DNA from: Anaerolineae bacterium
GTDB taxonomy: Bacteria > Chloroflexota > Anaerolineae > B4-G1 > SLSP01
Assembly (NCBI GenBank): GCA_026645815.1
Contig: JAPKMR010000007.1
Coordinates: 25,317-89,316 of the forward strand
DNA: 64,000 nucleotides
Reading direction: 5' to 3'
Both the position numbers and the translations under genes were made by a program. The notes under the pieces are model-generated. The model had not been told where the DNA came from, ran no database searches, and worked only from the letters and a program-made list of their open reading frames with translations. Each line of letters begins with the position of its first letter. Position 1 is the stretch's first letter. Shown one piece after another: positions 39,572 to 55,081 of this stretch.

Positions 39572-41458
39572 ATGTACGGTTACAGTGGCAAAATCCTTCA
39601 CATTGATCTGAATACTCGCAAAACATGGACTGAGGAAAAACCAGAAGCCTGGTACAAGCTGTACATTGGCGGTGTCTCAATGGCGGCGCGACTGCTTTGG
39701 GAAAACATCGAGGTGGGCTGCGATCCGCTTTCTCCTGGCAATCCTATCTGCATCGCCAACGGTATTTTTGCCGGCACGCCGGTGCCTGTCGGCGGCAAAT
39801 ATGGATTGGCCTCCAAGTCCCCGTTGACGGGTTTGATTGGCGATAGCCTTTCGGGTAGCTGGTTTTCTGTAGCTCTCAAGCGCACCGGTTGGGATGGTTT
39901 GGTCGTTCATGGCGCCAGCGACAAGTGGATCACGATATTCATTGATGATGAGCGGGTGCAATTCCGTGATGCCAAGAAACTGTTGGGTTTGGGCACCTAC
40001 GCCACGGAGGAAGCCATCCGCGAGGAGCTTGGTGATGATCAGGTACGCTCCGCCACTATTGGCCCAGCGGGGGAGAACGGGGTACTTTTCGCCAACGTGA
40101 CCAACGATGGGCGTCAGGCGGGGCGCACGGGGCATGGCGCGGTATGGGGATCTAAGAAGATCAAGGCGATTTCCGTGCGCGGCACGAAAGGTGTGGTGGT
40201 AGCCGATCCAGATACCTTGCTGCAGATGTCCTTTGATATCTCCGAGACTTCGCAGGGACCTTATACGGTGAAGTATCGAATGTTGGGCACGGCGACCAAC
40301 GTGCTCAATATGAACAAACTCGGCTTGTTGCCCACGCGCAACTACCAGGAAGGCACATTTGAGGATGCCGAGCTGGTGAGCGGCGAGTATCTCGAGGAAC
40401 ATTACAAGGTGAAGAAGATTGCGTGCGCGCAATGTCCTATCGCCTGCGAGCAGATGTCCGCAGCCCCGGATGGTCCTTATAAGGGGGCGATGACGGGAAT
40501 CGAGTACGAGTGTCTTTATGCCAACGGTCCAAATTTGGGCATCAACGACCTTCGCGCCGTCATCAAGCTTATCGCAACCTGCGATCAGGGCGGTATGGAT
40601 GCTATGAGTGGCGGTGTGACTGTTTCCTGGGCGATGGAGACTTTCGAGCGTGGCGTCTTCACCAAAGAGGATTTCAAGTGCGCCAAGTATCCAGAGGGTT
40701 TCGAGCCGTACTTTGGTAATGCCGAGGCGGCAGTGACCCTCATGGAGATGATTCGCGACCGGGAAGGTATTGGCGACTTGCTCTCGAAGGGGACGCGTCG
40801 CGCCAGCGCCATTGTGGATGCGGAGCGTGGCACTGAGACCTATAAGTGGGCGATGAATAGCAAGGGCTTGGAAAGCCCCGGCTATGATGCGCGCGGGCTC
40901 AAGACGTTTTCTGTGGGTATCGCCGTGGGAACGCGTGGCGGTTGTCACAACCGTACTGCGGCTTACGACCCAGATATCCAGGGCGAGGTGGATCGCTTCT
41001 CAATTGATGACACGCGCGGCAGGTTAGCTGCCAGCAGTGAGGAATATGCTGCTGTCTACGACACGTTGCCGCTGTGTAAATTCATCCGCCGTTGCTTTAC
41101 CGGTAAGGCGGACCGCGCCGGCGCCTGGCCCGCCATTGCCAAACTCATCAATGCTACTACCGGTTGGGACTTCGGTTACGATGATGTGGAGCTTATCGGC
41201 ATTCGTGCGCATACCATCAAGAAGGCCTTCAATATCCGCGAGGGGTGGAAGCGTGCTGATGATGATTTGCCATATCGCTGGAAGCACGACCCTATGACCA
41301 AAGGCGCTTCCGCGGGGCATGTGGTCACCGATGAAGAGCTGGAGTATCTCAAGGACCTCTACTACGCGGCTAAGGGCTGGACCAATGAAGGGCTGATTCC
41401 TAAGGCGAAGCTCATTGAACTGGGGATGGACGATGTCGCCGAGGCAATCGGTGTTTAG
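39572..41458 (+). CDS. aor: W/Mo-dependent aldehyde:ferredoxin oxidoreductase family protein
   Basis: YGYSGKILHIDL, KSPLTG, IGPAGEN, GRTGHGAVWGSK, CAQCPIAC, EYE, DQGGMD, RGGCH. Confidence 0.93.
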   Translation: MYGYSGKILHIDLNTRKTWTEEKPEAWYKLYIGGVSMAARLLWENIEVGCDPLSPGNPICIANGIFAGTPVPVGGKYGLASKSPLTGLIGDSLSGSWFSVALKRTGWDGLVVHGASDKWITIFIDDERVQFRDAKKLLGLGTYATEEAIREELGDDQVRSATIGPAGENGVLFANVTNDGRQAGRTGHGAVWGSKKIKAISVRGTKGVVVADPDTLLQMSFDISETSQGPYTVKYRMLGTATNVLNMNKLGLLPTRNYQEGTFEDAELVSGEYLEEHYKVKKIACAQCPIACEQMSAAPDGPYKGAMTGIEYECLYANGPNLGINDLRAVIKLIATCDQGGMDAMSGGVTVSWAMETFERGVFTKEDFKCAKYPEGFEPYFGNAEAAVTLMEMIRDREGIGDLLSKGTRRASAIVDAERGTETYKWAMNSKGLESPGYDARGLKTFSVGIAVGTRGGCHNRTAAYDPDIQGEVDRFSIDDTRGRLAASSEEYAAVYDTLPLCKFIRRCFTGKADRAGAWPAIAKLINATTGWDFGYDDVELIGIRAHTIKKAFNIREGWKRADDDLPYRWKHDPMTKGASAGHVVTDEELEYLKDLYYAAKGWTNEGLIPKAKLIELGMDDVAEAIGV

Positions 41459-41479
41459 TTGATGGATTAGGAGCGACTA

Positions 41480-41971
41480 ATGACAACTTCAACTTCAAAG
41501 TATAAATATATCACGTGCGATCCCGAGTTGTGCATCGGTTGTCAGCTGTGTGAGTATATTTGCTCTTACACGAAGACAGGGGAGTACAACACCTATCGCA
41601 GTCGCATTCGCACAATCCGGGCAGAGGAGATTCTCATTACTGCTGTCGCTTGCCGTACCTGCGAGAATGCGCCTTGCGTCATCGCTTGCACTCGCGATGC
41701 TCTCACGCAGGATCCCGAGACCGGCATCATTCATATCAATGCGGAGCGCTGTGATGGTTGCGCCTGGTGCATCGAGGCTTGCGATTTTGGGGCGATTTCT
41801 ATCAATCCAGCAACTAAACTGGCGGAAATCTGTGATCAGTGTGAAGACCTTGAGGATGGACCGCAGTGTGTCAAGTGGTGTCCGAAAGATGCTCTGGAAC
41901 TCACAACCCCTGATCAGCGTGCTCAACGCGCCCGTCGTAAGCTGGCGAAAGAAGACGTGCTTGGGATGTAG
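41480..41971 (+). CDS. 4x[4Fe-4S] electron-transfer subunit (AorB/DmsB/CooF-like)
   Basis: CIGCQLCEYIC, CRTCENAPCVIAC, CDGCAWCIEAC, CDQC...PQCVKWCP. Confidence 0.9.
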   Translation: MTTSTSKYKYITCDPELCIGCQLCEYICSYTKTGEYNTYRSRIRTIRAEEILITAVACRTCENAPCVIACTRDALTQDPETGIIHINAERCDGCAWCIEACDFGAISINPATKLAEICDQCEDLEDGPQCVKWCPKDALELTTPDQRAQRARRKLAKEDVLGM

Positions 41972-42080
41972 TGCAGGGACAAGAGAACGAAAAACGATAC
42001 TGTAAAAAAAAGGCGAGTGGACGATGGGCGCGTGGGGGCAGCGTTACATTCGCCTTTTTCTGTGATAAGGAGCGCAATCT

Positions 42081-44741
42081 GTGGCTAAGACAACACGTGA
42101 AATAGATTACGAAAATGATCCGCCGCGTATTGGCGTCTATGTATGCCATTGCGGGTCCAATATTGCCAGCGTCATAACGCCTGCGGAGGTCGTGGACTAC
42201 GCTAAGAACCTGCCCGGTGTGGTAGTTGCTAAGGAACATCGTTATGCCTGCTCTGATCCGGGACAGAGTATGATTCAGCAAGATATCAAAGAATACGGTT
42301 TGAATCGTGTGGTAGTGGCTGCGTGTAGTGTTGCCATGCACGAACCGACCTTCAAAGCGTGTATCGCCGATGCGGGGCTCAATCCCTTCATGTTCCAGAT
42401 GGCAAATATCCGCGAGCACTCCTCGTGGGTGCATTCCCATGAGAAGGCAGCTGCTACCGAAAAGGCCAAGGAACTTGTCGCATCGGCGGTGGCCAAGGTA
42501 ACTTATGTGCACCCACTGGAGATGTTTGAGGTGCCGGTGACGCGCCGCGCATTGATTATTGGGGGTGGCATTGCCGGTATCAGTGCGGCGCTTGATTTGG
42601 CAGATATGAATATTGAGACCTATTTGGTGGAGAAAACGCCCACCATCGGCGGGCGGATGGCGCAGCTGGACAAGACTTTCCCCACCATGGACTGCTCTAT
42701 CTGCATTGAAGCGCCGAAGATGGTAGATGTGGGCAAGAATCGCAACATTCATATCCTGAGCTATTCTGAAGTTAAGGAAGTCAATGGCTATATCGGCAAC
42801 TTCACGGTGAAGATCGAACGCAAGCCACGTTATGTATTAGAAAGCAAGTGTACCGGCTGCGGCCTTTGTGCTGAAGTTTGTCCCATTGATGTGCCCAATG
42901 TTTTCGAGGAGGGCTTGGGTCCCCGCAAAGCCATCTACGTGCCCATGGCGCAGGCAGTGCCTTCGATTTACACCATTGACATGGATGCCTGCATCAAGTG
43001 TTTTAAGTGTGTGGATGCCTGTGGCGCGCTCAGTGCCATTGACTTCGCGCAACAACCGGAGATTGTCGAGCTTGAGATCGGCGCCATTATCGTTGCTACG
43101 GGTTACGATACGTGGGACCCCTCGGAAATCGAGGAATATGGTTTTGGCGTTTATGAGAACGTGACGACGATGATGGAGATTGAGCGGTTGCACTGCGCGG
43201 GAGGTCCAACGGTGGGTGAATTTGTACGCCCATCCGATGGCAAAGTGCCCAAGAATCTGGCACTGATCCAGTGCGTGGGTTCGCGAGACAAGCGTTATCA
43301 CGAATACTGTTCCGGCTTCTGCTGCATGTACACAATCAAGAACGCGATGCTGCTCAAGTGGCTTTATCCGGAGATGGACATCACTATTTTCCGTATTGAT
43401 ATCCGCACACCCGGAAAAACCTATGAGGAATTCTACGAGCGCGCACGGGAAGCGGGTATTCACTTCATTCAGGGGCGCCCTTCGGAGATTGTGCAGGATC
43501 CGATCACCAAGAATTTAATTGTCCATGCTGAGAACATTGCCACCGGGCGCCATGTGGCGCTTGAAGTAGAGATGGTGGGGTTGGCAAACGCTGCCGTTCC
43601 TTCGGAAGGCTCTTTTGATTTAGGTCGCGTTTTGACGGTGCCGAACGATACCCACGGTTGGTTCATGGAATCCCATCCCAAGCTGAAGCCGCTGGATACG
43701 CCCACCGAGGGCATCTATCTGGCGGGTTCGACGCAGGGTCCCAAGGACATCCCCCAGAGTGTGAGCCAGGGTAGTGGTGCGGCGGGACGTGCCTCACGGG
43801 TGCTGAATGCGGCGACATGGGAGATTGATCCCATCATTGCCTATGTGGACCCCGAGCGCTGCATCAATTCCCGCGGTGGCAAGTGCGACATTTGTTATCG
43901 CGCTTGCCCTTATGGTGCAGTCATCAACCTGCCAGGAACGGGGCAACCTTCGAGTATCATCCCGGCGAAATGCCATGGTTGTGGCACGTGTGTTGCAGAG
44001 TGTCCCCAGAACGCGATTTCACAGCACCACTTCACCGATGGACAGATTGTGGCGCAATTGCATGCGTTGTTGGCGGAAAAACCGGAGGAGAAGGTGATTG
44101 CCTTCACCTGCCGCTGGTGCAGCGGCATGGGCGCCGATAACGCCGGAACGAGCCACTTTGAGTATCCTGCGAACACGCGGAATATTCTGGTTATGTGCGC
44201 CGGGCGTGTGGATGCGGACTTCGTCATGGAGGCGTTCCGGCTTGGAGCCGGCGCGGTGCTGGTTTCAGGTTGTCACCCACAGGACTGCCACTACATTTCC
44301 GGACGTAACTTTGCCGAGACCCGCATTACGCGGCTCTTTGGGCAGTTGGAAAAACTGGGCATCTCACCAGGGCGCTTTCGTTTGGACTCGGTCTCGGCTA
44401 CAGAGGGTGCCAAGTGGGCGCGCATCATGCGTGAGATGAGCACTGTGATCCAGGAGTTGGGACCGGAAGGGGTACGTGCAGAAAATGAGAAGGCCCTGCC
44501 TCAACTCACCAAGCGTTTGGCGCGGATGCGCGAGGTGCCTGAGGTAGGCTACTTCATGCGCCTCGTTGAAGGCGCGCCGCTCAAAGACGCTGAAACTGGG
44601 GTGCAACAAGCGCGTGATAAGGGATTGAGCCAGACAGTGGCGGTGACAGAATGCCAGCTGCCAGAGGTGACTGCTTGTGATGCCTGTCAACTTGCCGCAG
44701 CCTGCGCACCCGAAACAAAACAGGCGAAAGGAGGCAAGTGA
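42081..44741 (+). CDS. hdrA: Heterodisulfide reductase subunit A fused to an MvhD [2Fe-2S] domain
   Basis: RIGVYVCHCGSNI, ANIREH, GGGIAG, QLDKTFPTMDCSIC, QCVGSRD, CSGFCC, HPKLKP; C-terminal MvhD (AFTCRWC, VMCAGRV, GCHPQDCHY). Confidence 0.95.
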   Translation: MAKTTREIDYENDPPRIGVYVCHCGSNIASVITPAEVVDYAKNLPGVVVAKEHRYACSDPGQSMIQQDIKEYGLNRVVVAACSVAMHEPTFKACIADAGLNPFMFQMANIREHSSWVHSHEKAAATEKAKELVASAVAKVTYVHPLEMFEVPVTRRALIIGGGIAGISAALDLADMNIETYLVEKTPTIGGRMAQLDKTFPTMDCSICIEAPKMVDVGKNRNIHILSYSEVKEVNGYIGNFTVKIERKPRYVLESKCTGCGLCAEVCPIDVPNVFEEGLGPRKAIYVPMAQAVPSIYTIDMDACIKCFKCVDACGALSAIDFAQQPEIVELEIGAIIVATGYDTWDPSEIEEYGFGVYENVTTMMEIERLHCAGGPTVGEFVRPSDGKVPKNLALIQCVGSRDKRYHEYCSGFCCMYTIKNAMLLKWLYPEMDITIFRIDIRTPGKTYEEFYERAREAGIHFIQGRPSEIVQDPITKNLIVHAENIATGRHVALEVEMVGLANAAVPSEGSFDLGRVLTVPNDTHGWFMESHPKLKPLDTPTEGIYLAGSTQGPKDIPQSVSQGSGAAGRASRVLNAATWEIDPIIAYVDPERCINSRGGKCDICYRACPYGAVINLPGTGQPSSIIPAKCHGCGTCVAECPQNAISQHHFTDGQIVAQLHALLAEKPEEKVIAFTCRWCSGMGADNAGTSHFEYPANTRNILVMCAGRVDADFVMEAFRLGAGAVLVSGCHPQDCHYISGRNFAETRITRLFGQLEKLGISPGRFRLDSVSATEGAKWARIMREMSTVIQELGPEGVRAENEKALPQLTKRLARMREVPEVGYFMRLVEGAPLKDAETGVQQARDKGLSQTVAVTECQLPEVTACDACQLAAACAPETKQAKGGK

Positions 44742-45418
44742 TGGCAAACGTACTGAATCCCTTCGTCGTTGAACTATCGGGACGGCGTGGCGGGGATAAG
44801 GTGCTGCAATGTTATCAGTGCGGTACTTGCTCGGGTTCCTGCCCGGTGATTGATGAGATGGAATACGGTCCGCGCCGCATCTTGAACATGATTCAGATGG
44901 GAGAAGAAGCGCGCGTACTTTCCAGCCACGATATGTGGTTCTGTGTCTCATGTTATTCCTGTGCAAGCCGTTGCCCTCGTGAGATTCCTATCACCGAGCT
45001 AATGGCGACGTTGCGTGAGATGGCGGTAGAGAAAGGCTATGCTGAGGACCTTGAGGCTGAGTTTGGGCAATCGTTTGCCGAGACCTTCAAGCATTATGGG
45101 CGGCTTTTTGAGCCGGAATTGATGATTCGTTACTACCTGCGCACCTTTGATATCAAGGGATTGTTGGGGATGATTCCCCTGGCGTTGCCGATGGTGTTGA
45201 AAGACAAACTGCCTTTCTTCCCCGAGCGGGTGAAGGAGCCTGCGCACATGACGGCGCTTTGCCCCGAGCCACATGATGCGCCACCAAAGGCGGCAACGCG
45301 CCGGAAACCGCGCTGGTTGCCCTGGTTGGCGAGCGGCGTAACCCTGCTTCTGGCTGCGGGCATGAGCAGCGTCTTTTGGCGTTCTACGTCGCGACGCTCA
45401 AAGGAGGCTCGGCGATGA
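44738..45418 (+). CDS. hdrC: Heterodisulfide reductase subunit C with a C-terminal hydrophobic helix
   Basis: CYQCGTCSGSCP and WFCVSCYSCASRCP; tail WLPWLASGVTLLLAAGMSSVFW. Confidence 0.9.
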   Translation: MMANVLNPFVVELSGRRGGDKVLQCYQCGTCSGSCPVIDEMEYGPRRILNMIQMGEEARVLSSHDMWFCVSCYSCASRCPREIPITELMATLREMAVEKGYAEDLEAEFGQSFAETFKHYGRLFEPELMIRYYLRTFDIKGLLGMIPLALPMVLKDKLPFFPERVKEPAHMTALCPEPHDAPPKAATRRKPRWLPWLASGVTLLLAAGMSSVFWRSTSRRSKEARR

Positions 45419-46263
45419 AATACGGTTATTATCCCGGATGTAGTTTGCTTTCCAGCGCCAAGGAATACGATGCCTCATTGCGGTTGAGCTTTGCAGAACT
45501 GGGCATTGAGTTAGTGGAGTTGGAAGATTGGAATTGCTGTGGTGCGGTGCATGGCGAGGGAAAGGGCGTGATTGCGCTTCCGGCGCGTAACCTGGCGCTG
45601 GCAGAGGTTCAGGGCTTGGATACCATTATCGCACCATGCAGCGGGTGCTATCGCAACCTGCGCCGAGCGAGTCAGGCAGTCGAGAAAGATAAGGCAACGC
45701 GCCAGATGGTCAACGAGAGCCTGGCTGAAGGATTGCAGCTCAAGGGAAATATCCGGGTGTTGCACCCGCTCTATGTGCTGTTGCAGGAGTATGGCCTGGA
45801 GCAGGTTAAGCAGCGGGTTACACACCCGCTTAAAGGGATGAAAGTAGCAGCTTATTACGGCTGTATGCTAACCCGTCCCAAGGATGAATTCGACAGCACT
45901 GAGCGCCCGCAGGGATTGGACGATTTCCTTGATGTTCTAGGAGCGGAACCCGTAGATTATCCTTTCAAGGCTAAGTGTTGTGGTGGGGCATTGGCAATCT
46001 CACACAGCGGAGTGACTGCGAAGCTCACCGGGAAGGTGCTTGATTCGGCGAAGACAGCTGGCGCAGATGCTGTGACCCTGGCATGTCCCATGTGTCATAC
46101 AGCTCTGGACCTCTATCAGAGCAAAGCTGAGGCCGCTGTGGGTCACGATTTGGATTTGCCGGTGTTGTACTTCACCCAGCTGTTGGGCCTGGCTCTGGGG
46201 ATAGAAGCGTCTCGGCTGGGTTTCAAACGCCATATTGTCTCTCCGGCGCGGCTTGGGTTATAA
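45415..46263 (+). CDS. hdrB: Heterodisulfide reductase subunit B (two CCG domains)
   Basis: YYPGCS, WNCCGA, PCSGC, YYGC, CCGG, ACPMC, LPVLYFTQL. Confidence 0.93.
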   Translation: MKYGYYPGCSLLSSAKEYDASLRLSFAELGIELVELEDWNCCGAVHGEGKGVIALPARNLALAEVQGLDTIIAPCSGCYRNLRRASQAVEKDKATRQMVNESLAEGLQLKGNIRVLHPLYVLLQEYGLEQVKQRVTHPLKGMKVAAYYGCMLTRPKDEFDSTERPQGLDDFLDVLGAEPVDYPFKAKCCGGALAISHSGVTAKLTGKVLDSAKTAGADAVTLACPMCHTALDLYQSKAEAAVGHDLDLPVLYFTQLLGLALGIEASRLGFKRHIVSPARLGL

Positions 46264-46274
46264 GGAGCTCTACA

Positions 46275-47237
46275 ATGCGACGTGGTGCTACAGTAAAAAC
46301 CAAAACAGAGCAAAAGATTGTCCTCGACCGCAAGATGGTCACCTTGCATCATACGCAGACCTGGGACCTTGAACGCTGCGTGGGTTGCCAGATTGGTCCC
46401 CTCGTCTGTCCCAAGGATGCGATCAGCCATGTGCCGGCAGTCTTGGAAAATGGGCGGTTGAAGCAAAAGGCTTCGGTGGATATTGATCCCGAGAAATGCG
46501 TTTTTTGTGGCATGTGCAGTGTCATGTGCCCGACAAATGCTATCACTATGGTGGTTAATGGCAAAGAGGAAGCCCCAGTGCAAAAGTACGAAGCCTTCCC
46601 TTTGTTGATCGAATCCAACAAGTTCAATCGTGATGCTTTCGATATGAGCCGCAAGGATTTCGTGATTGAGAACTGTCCCACAGATGTGATCAGCTACGAT
46701 GCAAAGGCGGATACACTAAAAGTGGATCAGAAGTATTGCATCCGCTGCCGGCAATGTGAGGTCGCGAGCGATGGCGCATTCACGGTGGTGCAGCCATGGC
46801 AAGGTAGTGTGACTCTGCGGCGCGAGTTGTGTGTGGAGGGGTGTCTTGCCTGCGCCGATATCTGTCCCACGCGCGCGCTACACATTGACGAGAATGGGGA
46901 CCTGGCATTGGCGGATTATTACTGCATTAAGTGCGGCGCCTGTATGCAGGTTTGCCCAATAAAGGCTGCAGTCGAGCCTTATGAGGTGCCTTTTGAGTAC
47001 GCCGGTACAACGTATACTCGCCAGCATGAGCGCATCACCAATCTTGATGAATTGCCCATCGTGGTAGAACGCTGGCGTGTTGGTCATACGGAAGTTCAGA
47101 GCGGTTCCTGGGTCGCGGCGTTGATTCGCCTGGCAGATGATAAGGCTGGCGCGACGGAGATTGATCGAAAACGCGCGCTCAAGCGACGGGATTTGCTCAC
47201 TGCACTTAAGGGTGGGCGTTCACTGCTAGATAAGTGA
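46275..47237 (+). CDS. Polyferredoxin, FwdF/FmdF-like
   Basis: Six ferredoxin-type motifs (three degenerate); linkers ITMVVNGK...FP, VVQPWQG and terminal VER...SW..AL..L recall archaeal FwdF. Confidence 0.7.
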   Translation: MRRGATVKTKTEQKIVLDRKMVTLHHTQTWDLERCVGCQIGPLVCPKDAISHVPAVLENGRLKQKASVDIDPEKCVFCGMCSVMCPTNAITMVVNGKEEAPVQKYEAFPLLIESNKFNRDAFDMSRKDFVIENCPTDVISYDAKADTLKVDQKYCIRCRQCEVASDGAFTVVQPWQGSVTLRRELCVEGCLACADICPTRALHIDENGDLALADYYCIKCGACMQVCPIKAAVEPYEVPFEYAGTTYTRQHERITNLDELPIVVERWRVGHTEVQSGSWVAALIRLADDKAGATEIDRKRALKRRDLLTALKGGRSLLDK

Positions 47238-47789: not shown

Positions 47790-48923
47790 ATGACCATGCC
47801 TATCTATCTCCGTTATGCCCTGAATAGCCTGATCCTGTTGGCAACCCCGTTTGTCTCGGTGCTGATCCTTATTTGGGTGGCTCGCAAGGTCATTGCGCGG
47901 ATGCAGGACCGTCTGGGCCCCAACAACTCGGGGACTTGGGCCGGTCCGTATGCTTTATTCCAGACGCTCGCGGACGCTATCAAGATTCTCACCAAGGAGT
48001 TGATCATTCCTGAAGGTGCAGACCTGTGGGTCTTTTTGGCAGCGCCAATGGTGGTTTTGGGTTCGGCGCTGCTGGTGTGGTTGGTCATTCCCTTCAGCCC
48101 CACTTTGCAGGGAATGGATCCCGATGTTGGCATTTTCTATGTGGTTGTGATCACGCCGTTTGCGCTTTTTGCCATGATTATGGCTGGATGGAGTTCCCGC
48201 AACAAATATGCGGCTTTGGGAACTTTCCGGGCGGTGGCGCAAATTATCAGTTATGAGATTCCTCAATTCCTCTCGTTGCTAATTCCGATTATGCTCACCG
48301 GGTCGCTCTCATTGCAGCATCTAGTCCTGGCGCAACAATTGCCATTTGCATTAGTGCTGCCCATTCCCGCATTGATTTATTTCCTGGCGATGACAGCAGA
48401 AGTGGGGCGGTTGCCGTTCGAGCAGGCAGAGGCGGATGCGGAGATTGTTGCCGGTTACTTTACTGAGTATAGCGGGATGATGTTCGGGTCTTTCTATCTG
48501 GCGGAATTTATCAACAACTTCTCGGTCTCCTTGATTTTCGCGACAATCTTCCTTGGCGGTTGGCGCGGTCCTTGGGTGATGGACATCCCTATTTTGGGAC
48601 CGGTCTGGCTATTGCTAAAGGGATTTTTGGTTTTCCTGGTGTTGATGTTGTTTTGGGGGGCCATGCCACGGCTCCGCATTGATCAGATTCTGAATATCAA
48701 TTGGAAATTCCTGACTCCCCTGGCGCTGGTGATGCTCATTGTGGTGGCATGGGTCAACCGGCTTGCCTTCGACCAGGGCGCCACAACCCTCGTGGCGCGG
48801 GCACCCTGGTTATTTGCGGCAAACCTTGTTGTCGGATTAATAACCATTGGCTTACTGAAGTTGAGTTCGCGGCGCGCGCAGCTCCGTAGGGACGCACAGA
48901 GTTTTGAGCTGCTTCGTGAGTGA
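47790..48923 (+). CDS. nuoH: Complex I-like subunit H
   Basis: RMQDRLGPN, ADAIKILTKE, AQIISYE, RLPF...EA..E.VAGYFTEYSG, PRLRIDQ. Confidence 0.93.
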   Translation: MTMPIYLRYALNSLILLATPFVSVLILIWVARKVIARMQDRLGPNNSGTWAGPYALFQTLADAIKILTKELIIPEGADLWVFLAAPMVVLGSALLVWLVIPFSPTLQGMDPDVGIFYVVVITPFALFAMIMAGWSSRNKYAALGTFRAVAQIISYEIPQFLSLLIPIMLTGSLSLQHLVLAQQLPFALVLPIPALIYFLAMTAEVGRLPFEQAEADAEIVAGYFTEYSGMMFGSFYLAEFINNFSVSLIFATIFLGGWRGPWVMDIPILGPVWLLLKGFLVFLVLMLFWGAMPRLRIDQILNINWKFLTPLALVMLIVVAWVNRLAFDQGATTLVARAPWLFAANLVVGLITIGLLKLSSRRAQLRRDAQSFELLRE

Positions 48924-48930
48924 TGCGGTC

Positions 48931-49449
48931 ATGAGGTTTGATGTGAGCTTTGGATTTGAGCAAATTGCCTTTCTACTTACGGCGGTAGTGACGTTGGCTG
49001 CTGCACTGGCGATGGTGTTCTCGCGCCAGGTCTTCCATGCGATATTGCTGATGATTGCGGTTTTCGTCGGGGTGGCGACGCTTTATGTTTTGTTGGGCGT
49101 CTCTTTCATGGCGGGAATGCAGTTATTCATCTACGTAGGAGGCGTGTCGGTATTGGCGGTTATCGCCATTATGGTGACCCGTGGCTTTATGGGGAGTGAC
49201 CGCCCGCGGCCCGCTCGCACTACCTATGGGGCTGCTATCGTTGCCGGGAGTGTTTTCATCGGCTTGGCCTGGCTGATTCTGCGCGTGCCCTGGCCTGCGG
49301 TTCCGCTCGTGGCTGCTTCGGCGAATGATCTTGCACTTTTGGGACAGGTGCTGGTATCTCGAGCCGGATTTGTAGTCCCCTTTGAATTATCCTCGCTATT
49401 GCTTTTTGTTGTGTTGTTGGGGGCGCTTTACATTGCCCGGGAGCGTTGA
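48931..49449 (+). CDS. nuoJ: Complex I-like subunit J
   Basis: QLFIYVGGVSVL, VPFELSSLLL; start codon uncertain (48904/48931/48943). Confidence 0.88.
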   Translation: MRFDVSFGFEQIAFLLTAVVTLAAALAMVFSRQVFHAILLMIAVFVGVATLYVLLGVSFMAGMQLFIYVGGVSVLAVIAIMVTRGFMGSDRPRPARTTYGAAIVAGSVFIGLAWLILRVPWPAVPLVAASANDLALLGQVLVSRAGFVVPFELSSLLLFVVLLGALYIARER

Positions 49450-49450
49450 A

Positions 49451-49759
49451 ATGGTGCCTCTTTCGTGGTACTTACTTTTAGCTGCTGCATTATTCTCTAT
49501 TGGCCTGTATGGCATTCTGGCACGGCGTAATCTGGTGATGATTCTGATGTCTCTGGAGCTGCTTTTGAATGCCGTCAACATCAACCTGATTGCCTTCTCG
49601 CGATATCTGGAGGAGGGGCAGATAGTCGGACGTGTTTTTGCGTTGTTTGTTTATGTGGTTGCTGCCGCCGAGACTGCTCTGGGGCTTGCGATTATGATTG
49701 CTGTCTGGCGCACGCACCAAACTGTTGCTGTAGACGAAATTGATGCATTGAAGGGTTAA
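49451..49759 (+). CDS. nuoK: Complex I-like subunit K
   Basis: RRNLVMILMSLELLLNA, VAAAETALGLAI. Confidence 0.93.
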   Translation: MVPLSWYLLLAAALFSIGLYGILARRNLVMILMSLELLLNAVNINLIAFSRYLEEGQIVGRVFALFVYVVAAAETALGLAIMIAVWRTHQTVAVDEIDALKG

Positions 49760-49763
49760 CTTG

Positions 49764-51986
49764 ATGTCTGGGAATATCGCCTGGTTGATACCCTTATTTC
49801 CATTGCTCGCCTTCGCTGTGATTTTGTTAGCAACGCAGCGATACGCGCGATTGAGCCTCTGGTTGGCAATTGGAGGCATCGCTGCCGCATTTTTGCTGGC
49901 GCAACTTGTTTTCTGGGCGGCGGTGCTTAACGCCCTGGAACTCTCCAATCTGGGAGCGTTATCCTGGCTTATCAACGGCGGCGATGTCACTGCTTTGGGG
50001 ATAATCCTCGATCCGCCAGCGTTGATCATGCTGTTTATGGTTCCGCTGGTTTGCCTGATGATCTTCATTTATAGCACAGGCTATATGCGCGGTGATCCGC
50101 ATTATGGGCGTTTCTTCGCGTATATCTCTCTTTTTGCTGCTGCCATGCTGGGACTGGTTCTTTTCGATAACCTGCTGGCTTTCTTTGTCTGCTGGGAATT
50201 GATGGGGCTGTGCTCCTATCTGCTGATTGGCTTTTGGTGCGAGCGCCCAACCGCCGCTGCGGCGGGGTTAAAAGCCTTCTTGGTGACCAAGGTGGGCGAT
50301 CTGTTCTTCTTCCTTGGGTTGATGGTGCTCTATGCAACTACCGGATCGCTGGCGTATCGCGATCTCTTTGCGCCTGAGACGCTGGCACAATTAGCTCAGT
50401 CTGGCTACCTGGGTTTGCCTGTGACGCCGGCGTTGGTGATTGCCCTGCTCCTATTCGGTGGCACGGTGGGCAAGAGCGCTCAGTTCCCGCTACATATCTG
50501 GCTTCCGGATGCCATGGCAGGCCCTACGCCAGTCTCTGCTCTGATTCATGCGGCAACCATGGTTTCTGCAGGCGTTTTCTTGCTGGTGCGAATGTTCCCT
50601 TTGCTGGCGGTAGCCGGATTGCCATTGCCAGCGATTGCGTACATCGGTGCTTTCACCGCACTTTTTGGAGCACTGGTGGCGCTAGGGCAAAACGATGTCA
50701 AGCGGGTGCTCGCCTTCTCTACGATGAGTCAGCTGGGGTATATGGTGGCGGCTTTAGGGCTAGGCGCTTACGCGGCAGCATTCTTCCACTTGTTTACACA
50801 TGCTTTTTTTAAGGCCTTGCTCTTCCTTGGCGCAGGGTCAGTGATTCATGGGATGGAGCATGGTCATCATCATAGCGGCGCTGAGGGCCAATTTGACCCT
50901 AACGATTTGCTCGCCATGGGGGGATTGCGTCATGCAATGCCGCGCACCTTTGCAACGTTTCTTATCGGGGGGCTTTCTCTGGCGGGTTTCCCCTTGTTCA
51001 CGGCGGGATTTTGGTCGAAGGATGAAATTCTGGCGCAGGCTTTCGGGCGGAACCCGGTCATCTTTTGGGTGCTGGCGACTGCTGCCTTGCTTACGGCTTT
51101 CTACACCGCCCGTCAGATTAGTCTGATGTTCTTAGGTTCGCCCCGCTCTGAATCTGCGACGCATGCACGGGAGAGTAACCGTGCTATGACTACGCCGTTG
51201 TGGATTCTGGCGGGATTTGCGATTGTGCTCGGATGGGCTGGGGTCCCGGAACATTTCCCCGTGCTGGGTGGCGTTATTCCTAACTGGTTTGACAACTTTG
51301 TTGGGGTTCCAACCTCACCGCTTTTTGAACTGCCGGAGTTGTCGTCCGCTCTTCACGCGTGGCAACCATTAGCCGCCGGAGCGGGCGCCTGTTTGCTTGG
51401 GTTGGCTTTGGGGTGGGTGGTCTATGGTTGGCGCCCGTTGGCGGCAGGTGCGCCTGATCGGATCGCGGTTGGGTTGGGACGTCTTCGTTTAGGTTGGTTC
51501 TATAAGGCACTGCAGGAGCGTCTCTACTTCGATTGGCTCTATCAACGGACCATCGTTTGGGGAACTTTGGCTTTGGCAGGACTTTCCGCACGTTTTGATG
51601 ATGGCGTCCCCGATGGCGCTGTGCGGGGTGTGGCAACCACAGTACGCGCTCTTGCGGCATTGGCTGCGGGTTTCGATGATAAGGTTGTAGACGCGTTTGT
51701 GAATTTTTGGGCGACTTTTGCCCGTTGGGTGGCGCGGAGTCTCAACTGGCTCGATTTGCACCTGGTGGACCCGGTGATCAACTTTGCCGGTTGGTTGGGA
51801 CAGTTAGGTCCTTGGGCAACCGGCTCTGTAGAACCGGAGGTGCCCGATGCCCCAGTCGGCCCCATCCCACGCCTATTGACGCGTGTGGGAAGCGCCTTGA
51901 GCGCTTTGCAGACAGGCGAGGTACAGGATTATCTGGGATTTGCTTTCTTCGCTGCTATTGCGTTGACTGTCGCCTTTCTGCTGTGA
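49764..51986 (+). CDS. nuoL: Complex I-like antiporter subunit L with a greatly extended lateral helix
   Basis: WELMG, GKSAQFPLHIWLPDAM, SALIHAATMV, HAFFKALLFL, FWSKD, QTG.VQ.Y. Confidence 0.95.
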   Translation: MSGNIAWLIPLFPLLAFAVILLATQRYARLSLWLAIGGIAAAFLLAQLVFWAAVLNALELSNLGALSWLINGGDVTALGIILDPPALIMLFMVPLVCLMIFIYSTGYMRGDPHYGRFFAYISLFAAAMLGLVLFDNLLAFFVCWELMGLCSYLLIGFWCERPTAAAAGLKAFLVTKVGDLFFFLGLMVLYATTGSLAYRDLFAPETLAQLAQSGYLGLPVTPALVIALLLFGGTVGKSAQFPLHIWLPDAMAGPTPVSALIHAATMVSAGVFLLVRMFPLLAVAGLPLPAIAYIGAFTALFGALVALGQNDVKRVLAFSTMSQLGYMVAALGLGAYAAAFFHLFTHAFFKALLFLGAGSVIHGMEHGHHHSGAEGQFDPNDLLAMGGLRHAMPRTFATFLIGGLSLAGFPLFTAGFWSKDEILAQAFGRNPVIFWVLATAALLTAFYTARQISLMFLGSPRSESATHARESNRAMTTPLWILAGFAIVLGWAGVPEHFPVLGGVIPNWFDNFVGVPTSPLFELPELSSALHAWQPLAAGAGACLLGLALGWVVYGWRPLAAGAPDRIAVGLGRLRLGWFYKALQERLYFDWLYQRTIVWGTLALAGLSARFDDGVPDGAVRGVATTVRALAALAAGFDDKVVDAFVNFWATFARWVARSLNWLDLHLVDPVINFAGWLGQLGPWATGSVEPEVPDAPVGPIPRLLTRVGSALSALQTGEVQDYLGFAFFAAIALTVAFLL

Positions 51987-52062
51987 GAGGGTGTTTTGAA
52001 GGGGCAGTTCTTTGCTTTGATTTTTTACACTTGCTGGTAAGTTCTTTGATAGAGGTCAGGCT

Positions 52063-53577
52063 ATGCAATTTCCAATTCTCAGCGCTATTTTGATCACGCC
52101 TTTGTTAGGGGCGTTGTTAATTCTGGTGATTCCTCGCGAGGATGCGCGAACGATCCGCCGTGTGGGCGTTGCCTTTGCGGTGATCAGTCTTGTGCTGGCA
52201 ACGGTGCTTTGGGTGCGTGTGGAACAGCTGGGGGCAGACGCGCTGCAGTTGATTGAGCATTACCCCTGGATTGCGTCTTTTGATATATGGTATCATGTCG
52301 GCGCTGATGGCCTTAGCGTGCCGTTAGTCTGGTTAACGGCGTTTCTGATGACACTAGCGCTGTTTTATTCTGCGCATGTGATTGAAGACCGGGTAAAAGA
52401 ATACTTTTTCCTCTTTCTGTTACTTGAGACCGGCTTAATCGGCGTTTTCCTGGCATTGGATTTGGTATTGTTCTATGTCTTCTGGGAAATTGGCCTGGTG
52501 CCGATGTTCCTGATTATTGGTATTTGGGGTGGTAAACGGCGCGATTATGCGGCGATCAAGTTCTTCCTGTATACACTTGCAGGTAGTGTATTTGCGCTGC
52601 TGGCAATCATCGCGATCTATTTCAATACGGGTACTTTCGATATCATCGAATTGGCGCGCTTAAAGCCTTTCGCCGATAACTGGTTATGGGCGAACCTCGC
52701 TTTCTGGGGGCTGTGGCTTGCCTTTGCCATCAAGATTCCCGTTTTCCCGCTGCACACCTGGTTGCCTGATGCGCATACTGAAGCGCCTACGGCGGGTAGT
52801 GTGATGTTGGCTGGGGTGTTGCTCAAGCTTGGCGCTTACGGTATGTTGCGGATTGGCCTGCCGCTGTTCCCCCAGTTGTTCCGCTACTATGTGCTCGACG
52901 TTCCGATCTTGCCTGTTCTGGCACTGTTCAGCATTGTCTATGGAGCGCTGGTTTGCCTGGCGCAATGGGATTTCAAGCGTTTGATCGCTTATTCTTCTGT
53001 AGCGCATATGGGTTATTTCACGCTGGGGTTGTGCGCGGCAGCGGTTGGCGGCGCCGGTACGCAGATGGCTGCGGTTTCGGCGCTCAACGGCGCTGCCTGG
53101 CAACTTTTCTCGCACGGGATTATCACCGGTGGCATGTTCTTCCTGGTTGGGATGTTGTATGACCGGGCACATACCCGCGATTTGCGGGCTTTCGGTGGAT
53201 TTTCGGGACAGATGCCGGTCTATTACGGTTTGACACTGGTATTTGCATTGGCTTCTTTGGGACTGCCGGGGCTTGCGGGCTTCTGGAGCGAGCTGCTTGT
53301 TTTCCGCGGTACCGCTCAGTTATTGCCTTTGGCAGCCTACATTGGCGTGTTGGGAATGGTTTTCACCGCGGCATATATTCTGTGGAAGGTGATCCAGCAT
53401 GTTTTCTTGGGCACGTTTGATGCCATTCGCTGGGGCACGCTTACCGACCTGAAGTGGTGGGAACAGGTTGCAGTGGTGCCGTTGTTGGTGCTGACTATTG
53501 GGTTGGGACTTTACCCTGCGCCATTATTGGCAACATTTGACTCGGCTGTGACGGCGCTGCTGCACGTTTTACCCTGA
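52063..53577 (+). CDS. nuoM: Complex I-like antiporter subunit M
   Basis: FYVFWE, KIPVFPLHTWLPDAHTEAP, LLKLGAYG, IAYSSVAHMG, LPGLAGFWSE. Confidence 0.95.
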   Translation: MQFPILSAILITPLLGALLILVIPREDARTIRRVGVAFAVISLVLATVLWVRVEQLGADALQLIEHYPWIASFDIWYHVGADGLSVPLVWLTAFLMTLALFYSAHVIEDRVKEYFFLFLLLETGLIGVFLALDLVLFYVFWEIGLVPMFLIIGIWGGKRRDYAAIKFFLYTLAGSVFALLAIIAIYFNTGTFDIIELARLKPFADNWLWANLAFWGLWLAFAIKIPVFPLHTWLPDAHTEAPTAGSVMLAGVLLKLGAYGMLRIGLPLFPQLFRYYVLDVPILPVLALFSIVYGALVCLAQWDFKRLIAYSSVAHMGYFTLGLCAAAVGGAGTQMAAVSALNGAAWQLFSHGIITGGMFFLVGMLYDRAHTRDLRAFGGFSGQMPVYYGLTLVFALASLGLPGLAGFWSELLVFRGTAQLLPLAAYIGVLGMVFTAAYILWKVIQHVFLGTFDAIRWGTLTDLKWWEQVAVVPLLVLTIGLGLYPAPLLATFDSAVTALLHVLP

Positions 53578-53587
53578 AGGGAGCCTC

Positions 53588-55081
53588 ATGCTGGACCCGA
53601 TTTCGGTCTTTCGCGCCTTTGCCCCTGAGCTGGTGTTGCTTCTCGCCACCTTGTTGGTGTTGTCGGGCGATCTGATCTTTCACCCGCGCGGTCGGCGCTA
53701 CTGCACCGCGTTTACCGTCGGCGGTTTATTTTTGGCTTTCCTGTTCGCTATTGTATTTCGCTTGCCTGATGACACGTCCTTTGTGCCTGCGGGTCTCACG
53801 ATTGATGCTTTCGCGCTCGCTGTCAAGCTGTTGGGTTTCTTCTGTATCGCCATGATCGCACTATTGGCTGAGGCGGGCGATTGCTGTAAGTCATCGTCAA
53901 CAGCACTGTATTGTGCTCTGCTCCTTGTTGCGGCTCTTGTGATTTCCATCCTTGGCGCCGCCTCCGATCTGGTGCTCATACTCCTGGCGCTTGATTTTCT
54001 TGGCGTGATTGCCTATATCATGACCGGCTACGACCGTGTGAGTCCCAGCGCTTCAGAAGCGGCGCTCAAGTATCTTCTTTACGGCAGCACGCTCTCCGCA
54101 CTGATGCTCTTTGGCTTTTCCTGGCTCTATGGTGTTTCGGCGACGACAGACCTCGTGGGCTTAGGCGCTTTCCTTGACCGGGGGGCGACATCATCGGCAC
54201 TTTTGCTTCGCGCCGCTGAATTGGACTATGTGGTTTTGCCTGCCTTGATCATGGTTGGCGCAGGTTTTGCCACGAAACTTGCGGCGGCGCCTTTCCATCA
54301 GTGGGCGCCGGATACTTATCAAGGTGCGCCTACATGTTCTACCGCCTTTATTGCTGTCGTGCCGAAGATCGGAGGGTTAATTGCCCTGGTGCGCTTTACC
54401 CTCGTGGCGATTCCTGCATCTTCCTCGGAGCATGGCGGTGATTGGCAGGCCTTGCTGGTGGCATTGGCCATAGTGACGATGATTGTGGGTAGTTTGGCTG
54501 CTCTGTTGCAGAAGGACATCAAACGGCTATTGGCTTATTCAGGGGTTGCCCAAGTCGGGTATCTGGTGATCGGTGTGGTCACACAGTCTCCCACAGGTCT
54601 GGCGGCATTGCTATTCTATCTGTTAGTCTATGCGTTGGCTACTGTTGGTATCTTTGCCGCGATTATTGCAGTAACGGGGAAATTGACACCCGTTTCGACT
54701 GAAATTTCGACGTTCTCAGGGTTGCATCGGCGCGCGCCGTGGGTCGCCTTTGGTGTATTGGTGGGATTGTTGGCGCTCATTGGTTTGCCTCTCACAGGTG
54801 GCTTCATTGGCAAATTTTGGTTGTTCATTGCTGCGCTTGAAAAGGGTTTCCCCTGGCTTACCGTAGTTGTGGTGCTCAGTAGCGTCATTTCGATTGCTTA
54901 TTATTGGAAGATCATTCGCGCTATGTATTTTCTGCCGGTGTATACCGATGAGGCATTGCACATGCCAACCTGGCTTTCGATGGCATTGGGCATATGTGCG
55001 ATCCTCGTGATTCTGTTGGGCTTGTTTCCAAATAGCGTGCTCGCGTTTTTCCGTCTGGCGGTTGCTGATTTTAGGTTCTAA
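53588..55081 (+). CDS. nuoN: Complex I-like antiporter subunit N
   Basis: SEAALKYLLYG, KLAAAPFHQWAPDTYQGAP, KRLLAYS, GFIGKF. Confidence 0.93.
   Translation: MLDPISVFRAFAPELVLLLATLLVLSGDLIFHPRGRRYCTAFTVGGLFLAFLFAIVFRLPDDTSFVPAGLTIDAFALAVKLLGFFCIAMIALLAEAGDCCKSSSTALYCALLLVAALVISILGAASDLVLILLALDFLGVIAYIMTGYDRVSPSASEAALKYLLYGSTLSALMLFGFSWLYGVSATTDLVGLGAFLDRGATSSALLLRAAELDYVVLPALIMVGAGFATKLAAAPFHQWAPDTYQGAPTCSTAFIAVVPKIGGLIALVRFTLVAIPASSSEHGGDWQALLVALAIVTMIVGSLAALLQKDIKRLLAYSGVAQVGYLVIGVVTQSPTGLAALLFYLLVYALATVGIFAAIIAVTGKLTPVSTEISTFSGLHRRAPWVAFGVLVGLLALIGLPLTGGFIGKFWLFIAALEKGFPWLTVVVVLSSVISIAYYWKIIRAMYFLPVYTDEALHMPTWLSMALGICAILVILLGLFPNSVLAFFRLAVADFRF

Follow-up and report, generated by a model that had tools for sequence, protein, structure and literature searches.

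Tandem 26-residue modules in the NuoL lateral helix of Anaerolineae complex I operons with a single nuoM gene

In the '2M' type of complex I, found in Nitrospira and Chloroflexi, the NuoL lateral helix carries a single insertion of 26 residues that is linked to a second NuoM, as the available text of PMC9040806 and PMC7117926 describes. The field takes one such insertion as the signature of one extra proton-pumping NuoM. In 'Ca. Manganitrophaceae', Complex_I_1 and Complex_I_2 have the 2M-type NuoL insertion with no extra nuoM in the cluster, and the available text of PMC9040806 leaves the meaning of this open. Here we analysed a DNA stretch of 64,000 nucleotides (hereafter the window) from an Anaerolineae bacterium of the Chloroflexota (assembly GCA_026645815.1, contig JAPKMR010000007.1, positions 25,317 to 89,316), in which nuoL encodes a lateral helix of four 26-residue units next to a single nuoM gene. 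Several lines of evidence support that this helix is a tandem array of the module found once in canonical complex I. In this lineage, the number of units is uncoupled from the number of nuoM genes.

The nuoL open reading frame (ORF) spans 49761..51986 on the forward strand and encodes 741 residues; the true start may be an ATG one codon downstream. It lies between nuoK and nuoM in the gene order nuoH-J-K-L-M-N, as read from ORFs and Pfam matches. The Proton_antipo_M and Proton_antipo_N core is present (PF00361, 1.9e-76; PF00662, 4.5e-14), and the protein scores 597 bits against NF005141 (cut-off 556) and 577 bits against TIGR01974 (cut-off 407.5). In a Foldseek comparison with the PDB, its best solved relatives are NuoL and NdhF, with TM-scores of 0.79-0.88 on target length, and a public collection holds a near-identical protein named as from an Anaerolineae metagenome-assembled genome. 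The lateral helix measures 128 residues from Y589 (YFD) to Q717 (QTG), with four 26-residue units starting at R611, and leads into the last transmembrane segment (TM16), as seen from the helices predicted by AlphaFold2 (AF2) and from the invariant YFD and Q-T-G. An earlier note on this DNA had described four 26-residue units, 128 residues from YFD to QTG and Asp spacings of 27, 26, 26 and 26. The translation of 51525-51917 (forward strand) is exactly the sequence quoted there and confirms this description, since the V-x-D aspartates D618, D644, D670 and D696 are spaced by 26, 26 and 26 residues and the first lies 27 residues after D591 of YFD. The four units share an F-D...V-x-D motif, which is degenerate in unit 4. 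In the window alone the repeat signal is modest, as only 2-10 of 26 residues are identical between pairs of units; a lag of 26 gives the best self-similarity among lags 5-59, a value reached at any lag by 8 of 5000 shuffles. The steps of about 26 residues among the relatives make the repeat unmistakable. No tandem repeat was found at the DNA level in the window nuoL, and the repeat inside this protein is old.

The canonical helix shows what one unit is. In three canonical-type NuoL proteins from this class, YFD and QTG lie 51 residues apart, and the solved Paracoccus chain 8qby_L contains the motif once, in line with the earlier note's premise that canonical NuoL has one unit. Each unit opens with a kink motif (x-F-D-x-x-V-x-D-G-x-V-N) at its N-terminal end; the next 14 residues form an amphipathic spacer, in which positions 15, 18 and 22 hold small residues. 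According to the available text of PMC3274701, P552 of E. coli NuoL lies between NuoL and NuoM, and P564, L565 and N566 lie at the kink of the NuoM-touching helix; a stop at Y590, 26 residues past the kink, deletes the last (16th) transmembrane helix (TMH), and insertions of 6-7 residues are tolerated after G532 and P564 (Table 2 there). In Paracoccus, the available text of PMC9802314 reports that D648 of the Nqo12 transverse helix is coordinated by H239 (TMH7) and Y315 (TMH10) of Nqo13, and that breaking this link lowers stability and leaves the four pumped protons unchanged. Counted along the alignment with 8qby_L, D648 is unit position 3, the D of F-D, and because of this match a unit can be described as a spacer preceded by a hook that takes one antiporter-like subunit. 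We take the same Asp to be D563 of E. coli NuoL. The module therefore holds the helix-NuoM contact, and the units are copies of the module behind the single 26-residue insertion of 2M-type NuoL, as the earlier note had proposed and as far as the available text of PMC3274701, PMC9802314 and PMC9040806 goes.

At about 1.5 Å per residue, 26 residues correspond to some 39 Å. Q717 of Q-T-G lies exactly 26 residues after E691, the hook position of unit 4, and therefore TM16 continues the hook register. On the NuoM side, H231 and Y310 of the window protein are the likely counterparts of the Paracoccus TMH7-His and TMH10-Tyr, judged by their spacing from conserved Lys and Glu residues; both columns are invariant in our alignment A2, with His and Tyr in 41 of 41 single-M rows, and the same pair is mostly found in NuoN and NuoL as well. 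In all, the window NuoM keeps E142, K224, H231, K255, Y310 and H315, as read from the site columns and the invariant columns of A2. Among 34 middle units taken across lineages, many of which are recent copies and not independent, Asp occupies position 3 in 97% and position 8 in 94%, while Asn stands at position 12 in 82% and Gly at position 15 in 70%. Middle units share the small residues at 15, 18 and 22 with the last unit.

We collected 60 NuoL loci from relatives and classed their genes against the six Nuo proteins of the window by BLAST; together with the window, 60 operons were readable. Unit number was read from the YFD-QTG distance, as a hidden Markov model of the unit (213 seed units) was over-fitted and missed diverged units. 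The distances fall into steps of 76-80, 102-110, 128-135, 154 and 206 residues, corresponding to 2, 3, 4, 5 and 7 units. Complete operons with the order nuoL-nuoM-nuoN (L-M-N) have two units in 20 cases, three in eight, four in 12 and five in two, and those with two nuoM genes (L-M-M-N) have two units in 11 cases and three in one. Six further operons are cut by a contig end and have two units (4), four units (1) or seven units (1). The seven-unit NuoL belongs to G027, whose nuoN stands alone on another contig. A one-unit NuoL was found in none of the 60 Anaerolineae operons of this lineage. The locus L027 stands outside these counts, as its YFD variant was not parsed; by eye, this J-K-L-M-N locus has three copies of the motif. 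A HMMER search of the whole library with the last 167 residues of the window NuoL returned 225 proteins at E up to 0.001. Among the best 150 of these, 86 contain both motifs and again show steps of 76-78, 102-105, 128-134, 154-157 and 206 residues (72 two-unit, 7 three-unit, 4 four-unit, 2 five-unit and 1 seven-unit proteins). Outside the class, nine of 16 loci from the rest of the phylum were parsed and all have two units (6 L-M-N, 1 L-M-M-N, 2 cut by a contig end); by eye, six further loci comprise five two-M loci with two units, counting L084, whose second M is cut by a contig end, and one L-M-N locus with one unit (L083 was left out).

In three relatives (L017, L020 and L022), the kink motif of unit 1 is interrupted by an insert of 7-9 residues, rich in Gly, Arg/Lys and Glu, which shifts their distance to 109-110 or 135 instead of 102 or 128. 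NuoL-like matches also occur in frames of 1271 residues in two genomes and 1342 residues with one internal TAG in another (G086:C5, G128:C54 and G108:C4), and these could be fusions or read-through; a later locus of G086 (L092) has a 752-residue NuoL.

The earlier note had proposed to test whether repeat number tracks nuoM count across Anaerolineae. In this lineage it does not: the 42 complete L-M-N operons range from two to five units, and 11 of the 12 L-M-M-N operons have two, the exception (L050) having three. In a tree of the NuoL core, from which the helix was excluded, the window falls in a clade of 17 operons with three to seven units, in which all operons that read through to nuoN are L-M-N and the others end at a contig edge. 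Eleven 2M operons with two units form another clade, and the remaining 32 operons are mostly two-unit L-M-N with several separate expansions. At minimum, the tree requires 11 changes in unit number and four in M number. The close relatives L061, L050 and L048 have two, three and four units, and the 3' ends of nuoL in L053 and L048 contain 78-bp tandem repeats in the DNA (2.3-2.4 copies, 81-85% matching). It is thus well supported that the array gains and loses units by in-frame 78-bp tandem duplication and deletion between fixed ends, namely YFD after TM15 and the invariant Q-T-G of TM16. At the level of gene counts, repeat number thus changes independently of the antiporters even in closely related operons (at least 11 unit changes against four in nuoM, and 78-bp repeats in two relatives), an outcome that the earlier note had named as refuting its inference. 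What is left of its suggestion that surplus units span additional antiporter subunits is the possibility of several copies of the single NuoM.

A tree of NuoM and NuoN sequences (FastTree, with long-branch warnings) places the second NuoM of the 2M operons (M2) in one clade (12 rows), their first NuoM (M1) in one clade (13 rows) and the single NuoMs in one clade (46 rows). The single-M clade is sister to M1 of the 2M operons and also holds M1 of L050, the only three-unit L-M-M-N operon. The window NuoM groups with the single-M clade and not with M2. In these trees, the lineages of the window NuoL and NuoM are sister to L and M1 of the 2M type. Most simply, M1 and M2 would have arisen by one old duplication and M2 would then have been lost once, with no later return of the helix to one unit. 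In canonical-type operons of the class, units equal M genes: three of three L-M-N operons have one unit and one L-M-M-N operon has two. The latter (L074, G163:C28) has two similar 541-residue nuoM genes and a two-unit NuoL of 652 residues, and appears to have come by its 2M arrangement independently. Two-unit helices show a unit-to-unit identity of 7.4/26 in L-M-N (n=20) and 6.1/26 in L-M-M-N operons (n=11), a small difference that is confounded by kinship.

We also found that all 12 M2 proteins (L011, L018, L021, L023, L025, L029, L030, L034, L042, L050, L057 and L063) lack the TM7 lysine in the column of window NuoM K224, which is replaced by Leu in 10 and Thr in two. This Lys is kept in 40 of 41 single Ms, 12 of 12 M1 and 53 of 53 NuoN. 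To judge from this substitution, canonical pumping may be absent from the extra M2 subunit of these 2M complexes of Chloroflexota.

The units of the window are neither alike nor eroding. The helix start (residues 589-610, 51525..51590, forward strand like all features of this gene) contains D591 and Y594, invariant in the 69-sequence alignment A1, and falls in an AF2 helix at 587-615. Unit 1 (611-636, 51591..51668) carries the F612-D613 hook and the V616-P-D618 motif and aligns with the single unit of solved NdhF/NuoL. Unit 2 (637-662, 51669..51746) is the least and unit 3 (663-688, W-L-D-L-H-L-V-D-P..., 51747..51824) the most conserved of the four; the V-D-P signature of unit 3 also occurs in the first of the two units of two-unit relatives. 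A Pro/Gly-rich stretch (681-700, 51801..51860), predicted by AF2 to be non-helical, comprises the end of unit 3 and the unit 4 motif. Unit 4 (689-714, 51825..51902) has the degenerate form V-E-P-E-V-P-D with E691 at the hook position, followed by a short helix at 701-716. The final L-Q-T-G and TM16 (715-741, 51903..51983) include Q717, G719 and Y724, invariant in A1, and an AF2 helix at 721-740. Across 14 sequences of the genus, mean pairwise identity is 0.82 in the core, 0.71 in unit 1, 0.54 in unit 2, 0.86 in unit 3, 0.70 in unit 4 and 0.76 in TM16. In all 14, units 1-3 have F-D at positions 2-3 and unit 4 has E at the hook, each without exception, and the stretch 681-700 is nearly invariant. 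Substitution rates were estimated by the Nei-Gojobori method on six genus genes, with synonymous changes (dS) saturated so that ratios to the nonsynonymous rate (dN) are rough. Here, dN/dS is 0.13-0.43 for units 1-4 together and 0.05-0.09 for unit 3, and dN is 0.07-0.16 in unit 3, 0.06-0.10 in the core and 0.42-0.77 in unit 2, which is 4-8 times that of unit 3. One pair reaches a unit 2 dN/dS of 1.3. These comparisons indicate that the units are under purifying selection, are not decaying and are not equivalent to each other; the earlier note's idea that units 3-4 might be decaying does not survive.

A neutral or decaying expansion without function, or antiporter paralogues encoded elsewhere, would be another explanation of the array. 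The 78-bp duplication is indeed an ongoing mutational process, unit 2 is weakly constrained, with its pair at 1.3, and the genome is only 92% complete and has a second NuoD fragment on a 2.8-kb contig. Against it stand the dN/dS values of the units, above all of unit 3, and the retention of four units without indels across the genus and its sister G006. As to paralogues, the window assembly (4.94 Mb, 92.35% complete) has only three PF00361 genes, nuoL, nuoM and nuoN, which bears out the single nuoM gene of the earlier note and leaves its alternative of paralogues elsewhere without a candidate in this genome. The 97%-complete G154, with a two-unit NuoL, likewise has three PF00361 genes. Four of five congeners have the three operon genes plus one weak match, and the fifth (G003) has a second operon. 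The weak match of G012, the sole genome where it was inspected, is a divergent stand-alone protein of 471 residues, a kind also present in genomes without nuo genes. For the window, this explanation is largely refuted, and we regard it as very improbable overall. The 471-residue protein (L076, 1190..2605, reverse strand) matches only positions 84-286 of PF00361 (E 1.9e-13), and weak matches of such kind are widespread in the order, including the nuo-less genomes G008, G016, G018 and G020. No counterpart was found in the window genome, where the only match is nuoN itself.

The reading that we consider best is a selected, repeat-built surplus strap on a membrane arm with one copy each of NuoL, NuoM and NuoN, to which we assign a probability of roughly 0.45. 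The arm would stay L1-M1-N1, and the surplus modules would not each hold another antiporter-like subunit; they would lie between the NuoM contact and TM16 as kinked amphipathic helices, placed in the membrane interface on the cytoplasmic side. Slack may have been tolerated ever since a two-M ancestor lost nuoM2 in a single event, making later duplications cheap, and individual modules may since have gained roles of their own, in the window genus unit 3 with the Pro-rich stretch. This conserved unit and invariant stretch probably form a specific docking or hinge element. We favour the surplus strap because of the fast turnover of units, their non-equivalence, the gene stoichiometry, the tolerance of the E. 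coli helix for insertions at some sites and the cost, by our own estimate, of 7 to 10 H+ per 2 e-, a load that NADH and menaquinone could hardly sustain.

Several observations weigh against such a strap. The surplus units are selected (dN/dS 0.13-0.43 over units 1-4), and the hook residues are retained in every unit in 14 of 14 genus sequences, F-D in units 1-3 and E in unit 4. Position 3 is the NuoM-binding Asp of Paracoccus, and an L1M1N1 arm offers this site only once per subunit. None of the 60 operons has returned to one unit, and 2M operons nearly always lack extra units (11 of 12 have two), which is odd if slack is harmless. A place would also be needed for 117 Å or more of surplus helix. 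The AF2 prediction for the window NuoL (69-row alignment, mean pLDDT 83.9) gives helices at 587-615, 617-680, 701-716 and, for TM16, 721-740, with residues 681-700 non-helical; along the helix the per-residue confidence (pLDDT) falls from about 82 to 35-65 and is below 50 at 679-700. For the seven-unit NuoL of G027, long helices with breaks at four unit starts are predicted at pLDDT 38-50. Neither model shows hairpins and neither is confident. The hydrophobic moment marks units 1-3 as amphipathic (0.3-0.6), which is compatible with every reading.

The retained hooks would be explained if the helix were a ruler, with each unit's Asp hooked on one copy of the single NuoM and the arm being L-(M)n-N, where n equals the number of units, four in the window and two to seven among its relatives. 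The Gln of TM16 would take the equivalent site on NuoN. The Paracoccus contact between D648 and H239/Y315, as given in the available text of PMC9802314, maps to unit position 3. A carboxylate hook is kept in every unit with Q717 exactly 26 past the last one, small residues 15, 18 and 22 are retained in middle units as in the last, and NuoM, NuoN and NuoL all have the His/Tyr pair. Units equal M genes where this can be tested, that is, in the canonical-type operons (three of three with one unit and the L-M-M-N operon with two), in 11 of 12 2M operons and in five more in another class by eye. In three 2M operons (L018, L021 and L023), Tyr replaces the hook Asp of unit 2 and Tyr also replaces the TMH7 His of M2, a co-change that counts as one evolutionary event; the other nine 2M operons have retained His in M2 and Asp or Glu in unit 2. 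The absence of any return to one unit after the loss of M2 (0/60) also fits. On the other hand, unit number changes often and recently, and each change would alter the stoichiometry of the enzyme. Units 2 and 3 should match if they lay over identical M copies, yet their dN differs 4-8 fold and the Pro-rich stretch is on unit 3 only; L050 has three units with two M genes. By our own estimate, four to seven units would mean 7-10 H+ per 2 e-, a heavy energetic demand on forward operation. A complex I that contains the same antiporter-like subunit several times over is not known. Repeat number would in this case set the H+/e- ratio and could, for instance, provide a low gear with which electron flow is reversed when the proton-motive force is low. 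We hold such a ruler to be the main rival of the surplus strap, tentative and less likely than the strap.

The neighbourhood of nuoL bears on a further possibility. Upstream of it lie nuoH (47790..48923), nuoJ (48904..49449) and, directly adjacent, nuoK (about 49448..49759), all on the forward strand; these were assigned from ORFs, from matches to PF00146 and PF00499 and from the BLAST classing of the operons of relatives. Downstream follow nuoM (52063..53577, forward, 504 residues), the sole M-type gene by Pfam and TIGR01972 (541 bits, cut-off 263.8), and nuoN (53588..55081, forward, 497 residues), which matches Pfam and TIGR01770 at 326 bits, slightly below the cut-off of 332.6, and groups with the other NuoN proteins in the M/N tree. 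The genes directly upstream of nuoH, at 39572-47237 on the forward strand, are an aldehyde:ferredoxin oxidoreductase at 39572 and a small 4Fe-4S protein at 41480, an 886-residue HdrA2-like protein fused to an MvhD/FlpD domain at 42081 (NF040770, 1026 bits, slightly below the cut-off of 1100), HdrC-like and HdrB-like genes at 44738 and 45376, and a 320-residue polyferredoxin with four clusters and NuoI-like halves at 46275. These neighbours hint at low-potential electron input beside the membrane-arm genes.

The extra length could serve another partner, by running past NuoN over NuoK/J/A/H, tying neighbouring complexes together or docking a soluble partner, such as the upstream Hdr-like module, through the Pro-rich stretch. 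The near-invariance of residues 681-700, a unit 3 as constrained as the core, the HdrA2/MvhD-, HdrC- and HdrB-like and polyferredoxin genes directly upstream of nuoH, and the NuoM-like His/Tyr site of NuoN, on which a second hook could sit, are all compatible with this. Q717, G719 and Y724 of TM16 are, however, invariant in both 1M- and 2M-type NuoL, arguing for the same docking site, and from the general geometry of complex I a run past NuoN would absorb at most one extra unit before the peripheral arm, not three to six. The flanks of the 60 loci, which were classed only against the six nuo proteins, revealed no partner gene that accompanies the long forms. Taken together, another partner appears improbable as the main role of the array.

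The NuoD-family matches of the window genome sit on two other contigs (C148 and C114), and no nuoA-D genes were seen upstream of nuoH, with no individual searches made for nuoA, nuoB and nuoI. On C148 (loci L064/L066 of G000), the NuoD-family gene is part of an 831-residue open frame that may be a fusion. The second NuoD-family frame, of 371 residues, lies on C114 (L065/L067), a contig of about 2.8 kb, and could be a trace of another, unassembled complex I or hydrogenase cluster. In four sludge metatranscriptome runs, we found short, low-depth contigs, 93-99% alike, scattered over nuoH-N (47790-55081) and including the repeat region at 51372-51998; this represents presence in RNA libraries and is no proof of transcription.

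These findings put in question what a NuoL insertion means. The insertion is the first step of a selected repeat array of up to seven units, which across a class is unmatched by extra nuoM genes, a pattern that is surprising for a complex I specialist. If the surplus strap is right, helix length is an unreliable read-out of pump number, which affects genome-based 2M calls and the energetics inferred from them. If instead the helix is a ruler, one nuoM gene fills several positions and the H+/e- ratio of complex I is set by a tandem repeat, so that gain or loss of a 78-bp repeat would shift the 'gear' of the enzyme. In ATP synthase, the gear is set by the size of the c-ring. In the literature searched, we found no description of arrays of at least three units, of a class-wide quantised spread, of a 78-bp origin or of a nuoM mismatch in near-complete genomes; Chadwick et al. 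2018 and supplements such as Fig. S2 of PMC9040806 may bear on this point.

Among known systems, the canonical NuoL/Nqo12/ND5 helix of E. coli and P. denitrificans shares with the window the YFD start, the kink motif, the Q-T-G, TM16 and the role of a structural strap, but its YFD-QTG span of about 51 residues holds a single unit where the window has four. MrpA resembles the window NuoL in its homologous antiporter-like core and lateral helix (PDB matches 6z16_A and 7qru_A). MrpA as the identity of the window protein was rejected, as the MrpA NCBIfam models reach 219-286 bits against cut-offs of 920-1117 and the neighbours are nuo genes. The window NuoL also resembles that of the 2M type, as far as the available descriptions of 2M enzymes go. 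There too, a 26-residue module is inserted in the lateral helix, three extra units in the window compared with the 51-residue canonical form, and the window genome may share the layout that 2M-type Chloroflexi have and that is typical of the phylum, with nuoBCD(I) apart from nuoH-N. Unlike the 2M type so described, the window has three extra modules instead of one and no second nuoM in the operon or the genome, and its one-nuoM relatives range from two to seven units. The enzymes of 'Ca. Manganitrophaceae', in the same available descriptions, combine a single insertion with several complex I clusters per genome, from which subunits could be borrowed, whereas the window lineage has up to seven units and only three antiporter-like genes. 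The window enzyme is thus not a 2M complex I by gene content, but rather a variant of that theme.

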